Shown: in pieces, positions 50,570-56,266 of the stretch
How the letters are laid out: every line of letters begins with the position of its first letter
Position numbering within the stretch: the stretch's first letter is position 1
Virus record (IMG/VR): IMGVR_UViG_3300033069_001718
Span: 61,528-125,527 of that record
DNA from: a virus
Reading direction: 5' to 3' (one strand)
DNA length: 64,000 nt
Program-made: the position numbers and the translations under genes
The notes under the pieces: generated by a model
The model's database searches: none
Seen by the model: the letters and a program-made list of their open reading frames with translations, nothing else
Told to the model about the DNA's origin: nothing

Positions 50570-50947
50570 ATGAAACTATTCATTCCCGCAATTGGGACAA
50601 AAATAAAACTAACTCTGGATTGGACTTTTACCGTTCATCCGGAATATCGCAATCACGATTTATATGAGTTAGCCGCCCAAAAAGAAATCGATGATTACTT
50701 ATGGGACGGAAGTTCCCACCCCGCGATCCAGTTTACCATTCCCGCCGGCGTCACGTTATCCGTGGATCGGATTTATATCAAAAAACCTTCTCCCGACTAC
50801 AATTCTGTCACTTTTCGGATTCCAAAAAAATGTTTAGGTAATCCGCCTCATATGAAATGTTTGGGTAATCCGCCCCATTTGACGGGACTACGCTTTTGGG
50901 TCAAGTTGGATGATGCGAATAAAATCGAAGGTGATATTATACCTTGA
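50570..50947 (+). CDS. hypothetical protein (125 aa) with a tandem KCLGNPPH repeat
   Basis: aaatgtttaggtaatccgcctcat / aaatgtttgggtaatccgccccat at 50828-50878. Confidence 0.4.
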   Translation: MKLFIPAIGTKIKLTLDWTFTVHPEYRNHDLYELAAQKEIDDYLWDGSSHPAIQFTIPAGVTLSVDRIYIKKPSPDYNSVTFRIPKKCLGNPPHMKCLGNPPHLTGLRFWVKLDDANKIEGDIIP

Positions 50948-50979
50948 CTTATTCTAAATCCTCTGATACCATTCATCCT

Positions 50980-51594
50980 ATGAAAATGCGCATTGGCTTT
51001 GTCAGTAATTCAAGTTCTTCCAGTTTTTTGATCGGGTTGAAAAATAAACCCAAGACTAAAACTGAACTACGCACCCTTATGTTTGGGGACATGGATGGTG
51101 AAGTCAGCATTTACGATTTGGAAATGTCTATTCCCGAAGTCGTTGAGCGTGTCTTTTCCGATTTACGGGACGTGAAACCCCTCACCGAAGCTGAAGTTTT
51201 AAAGGAAATCAGCAATTCCTATTTTCCGGGTTATCCCGAAGACAAATTCTCAGGCAACGCCTCCCAAGATTTGGAGAAGGAATTTATCAATCTTTTCAAT
51301 GCCTCCCTAAAACCTGGGCAGAAACCCATCAATTCATTTTGCGATGACGCTGCGAAAACGCATCCGGAGTATGAGGAATTTTCACGGAAGCGTCAGGCTT
51401 TATTTCAAGTTGAATACGAACAGCGAGAAATTGAAATTCAGCTGGCTGCGAGAAAACACTTTGAGTCATTAAAGAAACAATTCGAAGGCCTTGAAGTTTA
51501 TGCGTTGGAATATTCCGACAACAACGGCGAAAGCGTATTGGAACACGGCGGGATTTTCGAAGCCTTGCCCCACGCCGTCCTCTCTCACCATTAA
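50980..51594 (+). CDS. tag family member 1 (N-terminus MKMRIGFVSNSSSSSF)
   Basis: Conserved 16-aa N-terminal tag, then a unique 190-aa body. In-frame ATG at 50980. Confidence 0.55.
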   Translation: MKMRIGFVSNSSSSSFLIGLKNKPKTKTELRTLMFGDMDGEVSIYDLEMSIPEVVERVFSDLRDVKPLTEAEVLKEISNSYFPGYPEDKFSGNASQDLEKEFINLFNASLKPGQKPINSFCDDAAKTHPEYEEFSRKRQALFQVEYEQREIEIQLAARKHFESLKKQFEGLEVYALEYSDNNGESVLEHGGIFEALPHAVLSHH

Positions 51595-51967
51595 AAGGAA
51601 AATAATATGCCCGTGTGTGGACCATCCGACCGTAAAGATGACGCTGATAAGGCGTTCAAGGAAATTGCGAAGCTATTATGTACAAAATACGGCGTGACCG
51701 ACTTGACCCAGGAAGAAACTTTTGGGTTTTTTAGAAAGGAATTCAATGACCATCGGCAAAAGCTCCTCACCGAACTGCGGGAAGTTTTTCAATGGGATTC
51801 CTTTAACTCATTCTGAATTATGAAAATGCTCATAGAATTTTATCTGGATGGTTATGAGACCGAAAAGGAAATGAAGGCGGCTTGTATTGAATATGTTGAA
51901 GAACAATTGAATATGTCCGCATCTTCGATCAAAGTTCTTTGGGTGGAGAAAGTCACGGGGGAATAAT

Positions 51968-52225
51968 ATGAAGTATCGTACAGGCTTTGTCAGCAATAGC
52001 AGTTCATCCAGTTTTATCTGTAAGGCAAAGGATTTAACCGATGAACAAATACTTAAACTTCTGAATTATCAGAATAGTGAAGATAACACGGACGGTTGGA
52101 GTGTTTATCACAATGCGGTAACCGGCGAAGTTCATGGCTTTACCTCAATGGATAATTGCGCAATTAGTGAATGGGGCCGTCAGGAAATGGAAATCTATTC
52201 CAAACTAACCTTTGAGGATTATTGA
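51968..52225 (+). CDS. tag family member 2 (MKYRTGFVSNSSSSSF)
   Basis: Same tag; 85 aa. Confidence 0.6.
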   Translation: MKYRTGFVSNSSSSSFICKAKDLTDEQILKLLNYQNSEDNTDGWSVYHNAVTGEVHGFTSMDNCAISEWGRQEMEIYSKLTFEDY

Positions 52226-52691
52226 TATGATTAATAAATGGATATTCGTGATTGACACCGATGCGTATGCGGGTAATTTTGAGCGTGACTTATGCGCATA
52301 TATCACCGGCGTTATTGGGGAGTGTGAGGTGGGGGATGAATTTGCGGCGCTCTATCGAAAAGAAACCGGCGACGGCGACGGCGTATGGGATGGTCAGTTT
52401 GTTGATTACGTTGAACAACGTGAAGAATATGGTTGCGCAAGGCCCTGTAGTTGTTGGCCTAGCCCCAAACAAAAAGGCGCCGAGCATAACAATTCCGTGG
52501 CGATTTTCTTTAACAAAAAACCAACTTCCAAACTGATCGCCTTGATGAAAGAGCGTGCCGGTAAATTTGCCGAAGCAAAACGGAAGATTGCGGAGGAAGA
52601 AGATTTGTCTTGGGATAAAAATTTTAAGTTGACCATTCACGGCTTTCGCTTGGTCCAAGAAAAAACCACAACCGAAGAGGAAAATGTATGA
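52212..52691 (+). CDS. hypothetical protein (159 aa) interleaved in the tag-family array
   Basis: ORF in track; does not carry the tag. Confidence 0.4.
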   Translation: MRIIDMINKWIFVIDTDAYAGNFERDLCAYITGVIGECEVGDEFAALYRKETGDGDGVWDGQFVDYVEQREEYGCARPCSCWPSPKQKGAEHNNSVAIFFNKKPTSKLIALMKERAGKFAEAKRKIAEEEDLSWDKNFKLTIHGFRLVQEKTTTEEENV

Positions 52692-52999
52692 AAATAAGAA
52701 GCGGGTTCGTATCAAATAGTTCAAGTTCCAGTTTTTGTATTATGGGTGTCGTGTCCGACAATGAGACCATTGATAAATTGGAAAGTAAATGGGAAGAAAT
52801 GAATAAGTTGGGGCTAACGACCCAGAGCGGAATTTCCGAATATTATGAAGAAGTATTGCTCGGCGCCTCTGTTAGCAGACTGCGGGAGGATGAAACTCCG
52901 GCCCAGTTTAAACAGCGCATCGTCGCGGGTTTTAAAACCCTGGACGTGGAAATTAAAGTGGAAGACCTCAGCTGGTGTGTTGACGGCGGCCACGATTGA
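52688..52999 (+). CDS. tag family member 3 (MKIRSGFVSNSSSSSF)
   Basis: Same tag; 103 aa. Confidence 0.6.
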   Translation: MKIRSGFVSNSSSSSFCIMGVVSDNETIDKLESKWEEMNKLGLTTQSGISEYYEEVLLGASVSRLREDETPAQFKQRIVAGFKTLDVEIKVEDLSWCVDGGHD

Positions 53000-53010
53000 C
53001 GGTTAAACTT

Positions 53011-54696: not shown

Positions 54697-54704
54697 CTTT
54701 CCTC

Positions 54705-54733
54705 TTGACATTTTATAAAAGTGTGAGATAATG
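54705..54733 (+). promoter_or_regulatory. sigma70-like promoter, identical to the copy at 44548
   Basis: cttgacattttataaaagtgtgagataatgtcc. Confidence 0.5.
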
Positions 54734-54743
54734 TCCGTAGATT

Positions 54744-55037
54744 ATGGAATACACCGTTAAAGTAATTACCGTGGATGAATTTAAAGCCTTGGTAGTAAAA
54801 TACCTGCTCCACGACTGGCGAGATTACGAAAAACAAGACATCATTGAAACCTTGTTAAGTGACGGTTTTATGAAATTTGATGTCGAAAATCTTGGGAAAT
54901 TTATGGAGTCTATGAAATGTAAAGTGTGGATGGCTCCGGTGGCCGTGGACGTTGGTGACTCAATGTTTTACTGGTTGGCCTCTGGTTCCAGTGCGATTCT
55001 TGTAAATAAAAAAGTAGTTGAACCGAAATTTGATTAA
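54744..55037 (+). CDS. hypothetical protein (97 aa)
   Basis: ORF behind the promoter. Confidence 0.45.
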   Translation: MEYTVKVITVDEFKALVVKYLLHDWRDYEKQDIIETLLSDGFMKFDVENLGKFMESMKCKVWMAPVAVDVGDSMFYWLASGSSAILVNKKVVEPKFD

Positions 55038-55038
55038 T

Positions 55039-55173
55039 ATGGGAGAATTAATATTTAAACCATTTTGTTTAGTCGTTGCGGCGGTTACGCTCGGCTCTGC
55101 CACCAATTGGAAATTCGGTTTTTGTCTATTTTTTATGGGATTATTCAGTTTGGATGGAAAACTTTTGCGGTAA
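55039..55173 (+). CDS. small hydrophobic peptide (44 aa) immediately upstream of the radical-SAM gene
   Basis: MGELIFKPFCLVVAAVTLGSATNWKFGFCLFFMGLFSLDGKLLR. Not in the track because it is under 60 aa. Confidence 0.25.
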   Translation: MGELIFKPFCLVVAAVTLGSATNWKFGFCLFFMGLFSLDGKLLR

Positions 55174-55192
55174 CGGATTAACAAAATAACTA

Positions 55193-56266
55193 ATGAACAA
55201 TAAAGCAAAATTAATGGTCAACGACCGCTTCAAAATCTTCCGGAGTGAAGATTACAATTATAATTTCGACTTGCTTTCCGGGACATTCATGCGTTGGGGG
55301 CGGACGCAGGAAGATGACCCGACGTGGAGTCCATTTGGTCCGGAAATTGCCGATATTGAAATTTCATCGGGGGCTGGATGCCCTATGTCATGTAATATGT
55401 GTTATAAGGGAAACCAAAAAGGAAATTCAGCGGAGAATATGTCTCTTGAAAATTTCAAATTCATTTTTGAAAAATTTCCTAAATATGACGGAAATTTCTT
55501 TCTCTGTCAGGTCGCATTGGGGATAACAAGCATCGCTTCAATGCCTGACTTTTTCCCGATCTGCGAATATCTCCGGAGTAATAAAGTTATACCAAACGTT
55601 ACCATTAACGGCGCCGATCCGATAACCGATGGTGAGTTGAAAAAATTAATATCGTTGATGGGCGCTATGGCAATATCACTCAACAAGACCAATTTTGAGG
55701 CAGGATTAAACCTCATCCACAGATTCATTTCAGGTGGAGCAAAACAGATAAATGTACATTACGTTGTAAGTAGACAAAGCGAAAAGTTTGCTTATACTCT
55801 TTGTGACGCATTCCAAAATGACGAACGTTTAAAAGGATTGAACGCGATTGTATTTTTGAGTTTGAAACCCAAGGAACGTGGGCAATTTTTGGATATTCTT
55901 CCAGAAGATGATTTTAAAAAACTAATTCGGCATTGCCTATCTAATGGCATTAGGTTTGGTGCGGACTCGTGTAGCGCTCATAAAGTTATCGGTAGTTTTG
56001 ATTCCAATCAACATAAAATGTATGACCATTTGATAGAACCATGCGAAGCTTCGAAATTTAGTTTCTATTTTAACAATGAGGGTAAACACTATCCCTGTTC
56101 GTTTTTGGAGGGGGAAAATAGAGACATCTGGAAAGATGGAATAGACCTGACCAAAATAACCGATTTCGTAAAAGAGGTGTGGAATAATACGTCGGTGGCA
56201 AAATTTCGTGATGATGTGACGACCAGCAATAAAAATGGCAATAATTGTTGTCATTATAAGATCTAA
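55193..56266 (+). CDS. radical SAM enzyme with a Cys-containing C-terminal extension
   Basis: CPMSCNMC (CxxxCxxC) in the context EISSGAGCPMSCNMCYKG. C-terminal cysteines in HCLS, DSCSAH, EPCEAS, YPCSF and NNCCH. Confidence 0.75.
   Translation: MNNKAKLMVNDRFKIFRSEDYNYNFDLLSGTFMRWGRTQEDDPTWSPFGPEIADIEISSGAGCPMSCNMCYKGNQKGNSAENMSLENFKFIFEKFPKYDGNFFLCQVALGITSIASMPDFFPICEYLRSNKVIPNVTINGADPITDGELKKLISLMGAMAISLNKTNFEAGLNLIHRFISGGAKQINVHYVVSRQSEKFAYTLCDAFQNDERLKGLNAIVFLSLKPKERGQFLDILPEDDFKKLIRHCLSNGIRFGADSCSAHKVIGSFDSNQHKMYDHLIEPCEASKFSFYFNNEGKHYPCSFLEGENRDIWKDGIDLTKITDFVKEVWNNTSVAKFRDDVTTSNKNGNNCCHYKI

Follow-up and report, generated by a model that had tools for sequence, protein, structure and literature searches.

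The stretch analyzed here comprises 64,000 nucleotides of IMG/VR virus record IMGVR_UViG_3300033069_001718, a metagenomic contig of 125.5 kb (positions 61,528 to 125,527 of that record; the whole stretch is called the window below) and belongs to a T4-like phage, with rIIA, rIIB, thymidylate synthase (td), DNA and RNA ligases and NAMPT all encoded on the plus strand. The system under study lies in the last quarter of the window and consists of six open reading frames (ORFs) that open with a common peptide, hereafter the tag, followed by a gene for a radical S-adenosylmethionine (radical-SAM) enzyme (Table 1). The tag reads MK[IYM]R[TSI]GFVSNSSSSSF in the six proteins; a six-frame scan of the window detected this motif six times, every copy being the start of one of the six ORFs. 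An alignment of the six products that also included two homologs of phage phT4A (an Escherichia phage) has 14 invariant columns among its first 16 (M1, K2, R4, G6, F7, V8, S9, N10, S11-S15 and F16), and conservation beyond the tag columns was zero. The 48 nucleotides that encode the tag are 50-83% identical between pairs of the six copies (mean 64%), and both AGY and TCN codons are used at each of its serine positions. The divergence of the tag DNA and the switches between the two types of serine codon point to selection on the peptide, and they exclude a DNA repeat or recent gene conversion.

A preliminary description of this stretch, made from the sequence alone, had reported the shared N-terminus, the unrelated remainders and the selection on the peptide, all of which are borne out by these analyses. 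Also present as described are a CxxC...CxxC ribbon in the member starting at 54115, a hydrophobic ORF of 44 amino acids (aa), the sequence CPMSCNMC in the radical-SAM ORF and a GIY-YIG endonuclease gene; the size range of 85-205 aa given for the tagged products is right at its lower end, the longest product having 204 aa. Once the tag is taken off, one of the six members is a singleton and the remaining five fall into five different clusters, all of which have orthologs in further phages. For the sixth gene of the array, JGI calls the start at an upstream ATG (54049); its true start is likely the one listed in Table 1, since all other family members begin at MK.

Table 1. Features of the tagged gene cluster and other features of the window (positions are those of the window)
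Feature	Position	Strand	Remarks
Tagged protein 1, 204 aa	50980..51594	+	'SHH' subfamily; C-terminus ...YxLEYSDxxGE..LEHGxIF..PHxxISHH
Tagged protein 2, 85 aa	51968..52225	+	subfamily cluster 2
Tagged protein 3, 103 aa	52688..52999	+	subfamily cluster 3; start overlaps stop of ORF 52212-52691
Tagged protein 4, 198 aa	53011..53607	+	subfamily cluster 5; C-terminus KPVKFxKASEYLK
Tagged protein 5, 105 aa	53604..53921	+	acidic C-terminal half; singleton without the tag; start overlaps stop of member 4
Tagged protein 6, 193 aa	54115..54696	+	subfamily cluster 1; C-terminal CxxC...CxxC zinc ribbon; weak zinc-ribbon Pfam matches
Radical-SAM enzyme, 357 aa	55193..56266	+	phrog_7293 (1.4e-74); proposed tag maturase
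Sigma-70-like promoter candidate	54705..54732	+	TTGACA-16-GATAAT, TG before; 11/12 match
ORF upstream of tagged gene 1	50570..50947	+	internal direct repeat KKCLGNPPH / MKCLGNPPH
ORF between tagged genes 2 and 3, 159 aa	52212..52691	+	phrog_23621 (1e-26)
Hydrophobic ORF, 44 aa	55039..55173		
GIY-YIG/NUMOD3 homing endonuclease	56314..57066	+	free-standing
Major-vault-protein homolog, 852 aa	36654..39212	+	Pfam MVP_shoulder (6.8e-18) and Vault_3
phrog_850 protein, 498 aa	4278..5774	+	'RNA-binding protein' (5e-150); Pfam DUF2828 and DUF7788
Two adjacent tRNA-Gly genes	186..340	-	anticodons tcc and gcc; window start

The tagged proteins had no match in Pfam, NCBIfam or PADLOC, and none was found for the family among PDB sequence profiles; the sole PHROG match of all six, phrog_7397 (function unassigned in PHROG), is limited to the first ~20-60 positions. 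By megablast, the region had no DNA match in cultured phages. At the protein level, the family is very large. A profile search of 5.8 billion proteins resulted in 96 clusters, nearly all of which begin with MKIRTGFVSNSSSSSF and which have very different remainders without a Pfam domain, and an exhaustive HMMER search of 1.84 billion representatives (50% identity) retrieved 24,440 of them at E<=1e-3 and 2,982 at E<=1e-10. The database search proposed in the preliminary description thus finds the tag to be widespread, with no known generic domain matched. In IMG/VR, the back-translated tag was detected in at least 598 matching stretches. The 74 loci fetched with the tag, viewed over 10 kb on either side and confirmed with one subfamily (hence a biased set), contain 343 tagged ORFs. 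These follow one another on the same strand as tandem arrays, with up to 13 members in 20 kb; the contigs concerned are 30-550 kb long, and the arrays are carried by T4-like and larger phages.

A relaxed scan, with at least 9 of 16 identities at the ORF start, collected 500 unique tagged proteins, in which conservation is highest at R4 (99.6%), N10 (99.8%), S11 (100%) and S12 (99.8%), followed by K2 and S9 (98% each), F7, V8 and S15 (96% each), F16 (95%) and G6 (94%). Threonine, alanine or cysteine is tolerated only at S13 and S14, G6 gives way to S, C or K in ~6% of the tags, and the variants at position 7 are mostly H, Y and W. Hydrophobic residues at positions 17-18, directly after the tag, are also conserved across the family. 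The tag is located at the start codon without exception. The proteins that carry it range from 72 to 279 aa and include zinc ribbons, acidic tails and other unrelated parts; 379 members stripped of their first 18 residues were resolved by BLAST into many groups (79 clusters, 51 of them singletons), and hhalign comparison of the 14 largest tag-less subfamilies detected no significant similarity that would suggest a common fold behind the tag (best probability 58%). Moreover, there is no universal subfamily, the commonest being present in 33 of 62 loci that were fetched independently of any subfamily. In an AlphaFold2 model of one subfamily, residues 1-10 are of low confidence, and a domain modelled with confidence begins with a strand made up of residues 13-20; D180, E188, H189, S202 and H204 are invariant in this subfamily. 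Judged by sequence, these proteins make up a vast family, not described before, that is defined only by the N-terminal peptide M-K-x-R-x-G-F-V-S-N-S-S-S-S-S-F and two hydrophobic residues; literature searches on the motif and on radical-SAM/SPASM systems of phages brought up no paper that contains the motif or describes such a system.

The family of the enzyme comprises 1,261 clusters or more. In Pfam, the window enzyme scores below threshold for both Radical_SAM PF04055 (13.1 versus 29.5 bits) and SPASM (19.3 versus a cut-off of 21.5); PF04055 is above threshold in a bacterial homolog (51.7 bits) and is recorded for many others. The cluster motif C63-x3-C67-x2-C70, followed by Y71-K72, is invariant in alignments of 35 and 47 homologs, with a longer first spacer in some homologs, and this CX3CX2C motif together with the fold and profile matches places the protein in the radical-SAM superfamily. 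Four further cysteines are invariant (C260, C284, C302 and C352), and the CX2CX5CX3C element of the seven-cysteine SPASM signature, which goes with two auxiliary clusters, is not present in the alignments. A single auxiliary Fe-S cluster in a twitch-like or truncated SPASM domain is therefore predicted from the sequence, instead of the two of a full SPASM domain. The N-terminal ~50 residues are unusually conserved (YNYxF..G.F.RWG.T.EDDP..SP.GPE) and form, in an AlphaFold2 model of high confidence (pLDDT 95.1), a four-stranded beta mini-domain (about residues 6-35) ahead of the barrel.

SuiB and SkfB are RiPP (ribosomally made peptide with post-translational modification) maturases, the former making the Lys-Trp cyclophane of streptide and having been solved with its precursor peptide. 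These two were the best PDB matches of the enzyme model in Foldseek (7e-10 and 3e-9, respectively), followed by BlsE, viperin, MoaA, PFL-AE (rank 14, peptide-bound), BtrN and PqqE, all top matches being radical-SAM proteins. Among PDB entries, sequence-profile matches of the enzyme were confined to BtrN and SkfB; PPR proteins, which topped a PDB profile search with the enzyme alignment, were rejected as repeat artefacts arising from many weak stretches. No NCBIfam model was matched in a scan at E<=1, the models for FxsB, anaerobic sulfatase-maturating enzyme (anSME), other maturases and RlmN being absent from the results. The similarity to RlmN/Cfr that had been read from the context of CPMSCNMC does not hold, as there is no such family match and RlmN came only 28th in the fold search (E 1.4e-4, TM score 0.45). 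As modelled, the enzyme is of the twitch/SPASM peptide-maturase and dehydrogenase class and not of the RlmN/Cfr type. A homing endonuclease gene lies directly 3' of the radical-SAM gene in the window, and the radical-SAM frame itself is split by insertions of 1-1.5 kb in several phages (loci L041, L047 and L073; Cronobacter phage leB); mobile elements thus seem to have targeted this gene repeatedly.

In a few bacteria and in hundreds of phages, the tag and the enzyme are closely linked, irrespective of which of the two is used to retrieve the loci. An enzyme homolog was identified within 10 kb in 46 of the 74 tag-fetched loci, and tagged genes were identified within 10 kb in 69 of 80 enzyme-fetched loci (62 of 73 after duplicate removal), always on the same strand (62/62) and with a median distance of 260 nt between the enzyme gene and the nearest tagged gene. 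Eleven loci were at first scored as lacking tags; five of these prove to be RB16- or Slopekvirus-type genomes in which the tagged genes lie ~20 kb away, the same contigs being also among the tag-fetched ones, and two more carry the divergent tags SFVANSSSSSF and RHVANSSSSGF. All-against-all clustering of ORFs assigned the tag family to 76 loci, the enzyme to 46 and the next cluster to 15; the enzyme was the only conserved neighbor, and no third conserved component was found in this clustering. Cultured T4 relatives (RB16 and the Slopekvirus phages of Klebsiella and E. coli) have the system in minimal form, with two tagged proteins for one enzyme. In RB16 a tagged gene is located at 70491-71000 and the enzyme gene at 90403-91557, and in cultured phages the RB16-type tagged protein and the enzyme occur in 175 and 173 records, respectively, with a nearly identical breakdown by genus. 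A 738-aa von Willebrand A-domain (vWA) protein is flanked by two tagged genes in phage phT4A (locus L002, 7001-11369), and the same layout is seen in RB16-type loci.

Bacterial chromosomes contain similar cassettes. In Acidobacteriota, an enzyme homolog of 37-39% identity is directly upstream of a single tagged gene in a two-gene cassette that adjoins arginine-biosynthesis genes, and the same enzyme-tag cassette is found in Fibromonadales near QatB, TatD and Schlafen-like genes. In a second arrangement, three Acidobacteriota genomes have a tagged gene followed by a more distant enzyme homolog (24-27%), the stop and start codons overlapping, and in two of the three there is an upstream SMEK-NACHT NTPase resembling Avs2 (PADLOC) and a small ORF. 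The NACHT NTPase, a 128-aa ORF, the tagged protein and the enzyme are 40-60% identical between species (locus L160, 6736-11502; also L164 and L161), and the L160 cassette lies between tyrosine recombinases. From the linkage in both directions and from these bacterial cassettes, the tag and the enzyme form a conserved two-component module, with linkage almost universal in phages and bacterial cassettes. Their co-occurrence, which the preliminary description had raised as a test of its proposals, is thus established. The half of one proposal that makes the enzyme an RlmN-like RNA methylase unrelated to the tag is wrong on both counts; its other half, that the tagged proteins are effectors or anti-defense proteins, may hold.

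Variation of the tag within single genomes is concerted. Pairs of tagged proteins from the same locus share a rare tag residue in 95 cases, compared with 33.9 +/- 6.0 (maximum 56) in 1000 shuffles. All four tags of locus L151 have F7H, although their paralogs are unrelated beyond the tag and the tag DNA is 54-73% identical; all three of L114 have K2R, encoded by CGC, AGA and AGG in tag DNA of 62-73% identity; all four of L090 have G6S with S9A; and all three of L020 have F7L. In all these variant genomes the tagged proteins are unrelated beyond the tag, and their tag DNA is mostly diverged. On the side of the enzyme, Q106 is kept in 85 of 87 aligned sequences, the exceptions being Q106S at the F7H locus and Q106T at an F7Y locus, and Q185 is kept in 86 of 87, the exception (Q185Y) belonging to the locus with G6S and S9A. 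This covariation offers a lead and no proof; it matches what a contact between the enzyme and its substrate or ligand would give.

It is moderately probable that the co-encoded radical-SAM enzyme docks at the tag and modifies it there, a proposal derived from sequence comparison and modelling. This reading is favored because of the linkage, the co-carriage in cultured phages, the bacterial cassettes, the RiPP-maturase-like fold and the concerted tag variants. A substrate or recognition role of the tag had been put forward in the preliminary description by analogy with anSME; the role itself is the one favored here on grounds of linkage, fold and variants, but the analogy is not borne out in detail, as the tag lacks the anSME motif and the enzyme appears to have one auxiliary cluster. 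The flexible first ~12 residues of a nascent or unfolded tagged protein would enter the barrel, possibly aided by the N-terminal beta mini-domain of the enzyme; presentation would probably precede domain folding, because residues 13-20 become a core strand. The 5'-deoxyadenosyl radical would then take a hydrogen from a residue in G6-F7-V8-S9-N10-S11-S12, and the single, fully cysteine-ligated auxiliary cluster could accept the second electron, resulting in a two-electron oxidation. Thioether chemistry is excluded by the lack of a conserved cysteine in the tag, and the absence of a (C/S)xPxR motif indicates that this is not an anSME-type site.

As a first guess, the product may be a three-residue cyclophane on F7-V8-S9, with the aromatic ring joined to a C-beta as in triceptides and FxS peptides; as a second guess, the side chain of a serine or asparagine may be oxidized. 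Triceptide synthases crosslink aromatic-X-X motifs from the aromatic ring to C-beta (PMC11499958), and cyclophanes are formed by FxsB and related enzymes (PMC10114670). FxSxx peptides were found with radical-SAM/SPASM enzymes in STAND-NTPase/vWA conflict systems (PMC7159879). Through the modified tail, the changing set of early phage proteins could come to share some property, such as stability, reactivity or an epitope for binding, and these proteins are probably host-takeover or counter-defense factors; a role in phage-host conflict is suggested by the early context, the fast turnover of the C-terminal domains and the defense-island neighbors of the bacterial cassettes. His-Xaa-Ser is another motif associated with radical-SAM enzymes. 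A broader and more speculative picture, which we put forward only tentatively, is that of a virus-wide 'tag and modify' system: one phage enzyme would install a modification of a new kind on a universal N-terminal handle of this fast-changing repertoire (2-13 proteins per genome, more than 24,000 protein clusters), and the same module stands beside NACHT/Avs-like immune NTPases in bacteria, the modified tail being perhaps a weapon, a decoy or a signal.

Several observations weigh against the tag being modified by the enzyme. In the one modelled subfamily, residues 13-20 are part of the folded core and the conserved D, E, H, S and H accompany them, so the serine-rich stretch could have an intrinsic structural or catalytic role. 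The enzyme is accompanied by no RiPP recognition element (RRE) domain, leader protease or transporter (there was no PqqD/RRE Pfam match and no other conserved neighbor), and specific matches to FxsB, anSME or other NCBIfam maturase models are lacking. A cyclophane product is opposed by the F7L tags of locus L020 (IMG/VR contig 3300009502_000023), which also has no radical-SAM homolog within 10 kb; this genome may speak against an obligatory aromatic residue, or its enzyme may have been lost or lie far away. More generally, 27 of 67 tag-fetched loci lack the enzyme within 10 kb, a shortfall that is partly explained by distance. Finally, the coincidences at Q106 and Q185 were noticed post hoc and concern three loci, one of which (L055) has a generally divergent enzyme.

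Among the other explanations, the tag could be a docking peptide only, with the tagged proteins acting as interchangeable adaptors that present host proteins, RNAs or metabolites to the enzyme. Linkage and within-genome covariation indicate a shared partner and not modification as such, and adaptors would account for the diversity of the C-terminal domains as well as for the single enzyme per array. Nevertheless, we regard this as unlikely: radical-SAM active sites are buried and substrate-specific, the minimal cassettes of bacteria hold just one tagged protein, the invariant polar N-S-S core resembles a site of chemistry rather than a strand for docking, and we know of no radical-SAM enzyme that serves many targets through adaptors. 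A different view would regard the tagged proteins as one extremely divergent superfamily, in which the N-terminal strand and the serine-rich loop are catalytic or ligand-binding and the enzyme makes a cofactor or ligand, leaving the tag untouched. The position of residues 13-20 as the first core strand, the resemblance of D180, E188, H189, S202 and H204 to an active site (both in the modelled subfamily) and the family-wide hydrophobic positions 17-18 are in line with this view, which is nonetheless improbable, as the subfamilies lack profile-profile similarity beyond the tag, differ in size (72-279 aa) and in their parts, such as zinc ribbons and acidic tails, which are unrelated, and have their most invariant part, residues 1-12, predicted outside the fold. 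Sixteen invariant residues against a mean column identity of ~12% elsewhere would also be unusual for divergent enzyme families.

T4 internal proteins are diverse proteins from plastic loci that share an invariant N-terminal decapeptide, and by this precedent the tag could be a signal for sorting, assembly or oligomerization (capsid targeting as in T4, or a Ser/Asn/aromatic zipper), the enzyme being linked for some other reason. The disorder of residues 1-10 in the monomer model is compatible with such a signal, and the composition of G-F-V-S-N-S-S-S-S-S-F is reminiscent of low-complexity zipper segments. Against this stand the absence of Glu from the tag, and hence of an L/I-x-E prohead-protease site, the early-gene setting (rIIA/B, td, ligases) with no TATAAATA nearby, the presence of the tag in bacterial chromosomal cassettes that have no virion, and the near-obligate link to the enzyme, which a sorting signal would leave unexplained; we give it little credence. 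The preliminary description had proposed a packaging or targeting signal of this kind, or loading into a compartment built by the major-vault-protein homolog of the window, and had suggested looking for co-occurrence of the tag with the latter. No such co-occurrence exists: by tblastn the vault-protein homolog was identified in only three phage records, from uncultured phages of 462-735 kb, and RB16- and Slopekvirus-type phages possess the tag and the enzyme without it. There remains the reading of the shared N-terminus as a DNA-level artefact, whether a repeat, a recombination cassette, gene conversion or chance. No observation in its favor was found. It is refuted by the 50-83% identity of the tag DNA, the serine codon switches, the 24,440 protein clusters and the encoding of K2R by three different Arg codons, and has practically no chance of being true.

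With regard to its surroundings in the window, the tagged cluster is in an early or middle gene block, as judged from the neighboring genes, and the late promoter TATAAATA was not found near or within it. The stop-start overlaps in the array suggest that it is co-transcribed. The sigma-70-like promoter candidate immediately precedes ORF 54744, after which come the 44-aa ORF and the radical-SAM gene; the regional total of promoter-like sites equals the shuffle expectation, so that this site is weak evidence. No Rfam families or tRNAs were detected within the cluster. For the ORFs at 51607, 51820, 52212, 53924, 54744 and 55039, none of the related loci examined has a counterpart, and the last of them, the hydrophobic one of 44 aa, was accordingly not counted as part of the system. 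The ORF between tagged genes 2 and 3 has a PHROG match of its own, and the one that directly precedes the first tagged gene has a direct repeat within it. Farther away, two adjacent tRNA-Gly genes are found at the window start. The occurrence of a major-vault-protein homolog, which is without a PHROG, in a T4-like phage is an observation apart from the tagged system, and the putative RNA-binding protein with DUF2828 and DUF7788 may be of interest together with it.

If the tag is indeed modified, the system would be among the largest uncharacterized enzyme-substrate systems of phages, represented in well-studied, culturable T4 relatives as well as in numerous large phages that are uncultured. 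RiPP-like maturation by radical-SAM enzymes would then extend from short peptides to families of folded proteins, thousands of early phage genes now labelled 'hypothetical' would become easier to assign a function, and the bacterial NACHT-linked cassettes connect it to immunity. As a 16-residue sequence recognized by one enzyme, the tag could also serve as a tool for protein engineering.

Comparison with known systems reveals partial similarities to several of them. The anSMEs (AslB/AtsB) are of the same broad radical-SAM class and modify Ser or Cys in full-length proteins before folding, and some database sources label homologs of the present enzyme 'AslB'; however, the tag has no (C/S)-x-(P/A)-x-R, anSMEs have two auxiliary clusters, there is no family match and the tagged proteins are not sulfatases. 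Glycyl-radical enzymes and their activases (PFL-AE, NrdG) likewise combine a radical-SAM enzyme with a conserved Gly-aromatic peptide of a protein, but the RVxG[FWY] C-terminal loop of that class is not found here: the tag has R-x-G-F instead of R-V-x-G-[YF], is an exposed N-terminus and not a buried C-terminal loop, and tolerates replacement of G6, and the enzyme has an auxiliary-cluster domain that activases lack. With the capsid-targeted internal proteins of T4, the tagged family shares diverse proteins in plastic T4-like loci and an invariant N-terminal peptide. It falls outside that group, as the tag has no Glu and no protease site, the cluster has early neighbors and no late promoter, and the tag goes together with a radical-SAM enzyme and is also found in bacteria.

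The triceptide or FXSXX-COOH systems (FxsA-FxsB) are closer in some respects. The tag holds F7-V8-S9-N10-S11, an FxSxx sequence, with position 7 mostly aromatic (H, Y, W), the Acidobacteriota cassette adjoins a STAND (NACHT) NTPase, and RB16-type phages have the vWA protein between two tagged genes. Unlike in FxsA, FVSNS is located at residues 7-11, near the N-terminus and not at the C-terminus; the enzyme has no FxsB or cyclophane-synthase NCBIfam match, there is no metallopeptidase partner, and all tags of L020 have Leu7. The resemblance to this family is thus limited to the motif and the conflict-system context.

The best fold match is to the SuiB/StrB (streptide) and SkfB maturases, which similarly have a radical-SAM cluster and an auxiliary Fe-S domain, and whose genes adjoin several same-strand substrate genes with a conserved N-terminal segment and a variable remainder. 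The substrates here would differ in being proteins of 72-279 aa with predicted folded domains instead of short peptides, and the conserved part comprises ~18 residues at the extreme N-terminus, which are probably also the modified site. Moreover, an RRE/PqqD, a leader protease and an exporter are lacking, the enzyme has four auxiliary cysteines and no CX2CX5CX3C, and lytic phages carry the system in their early region. Thus, of the hallmarks of RiPP systems, the short precursor with RRE and protease or exporter is not seen, whereas a maturase co-located with genes that share a conserved recognition sequence is. On balance, the system is proposed to consist of a radical-SAM maturase and its cognate substrates, with protein-sized substrates, a terminal tag, a location among phage early genes and a very large family as its unusual traits.

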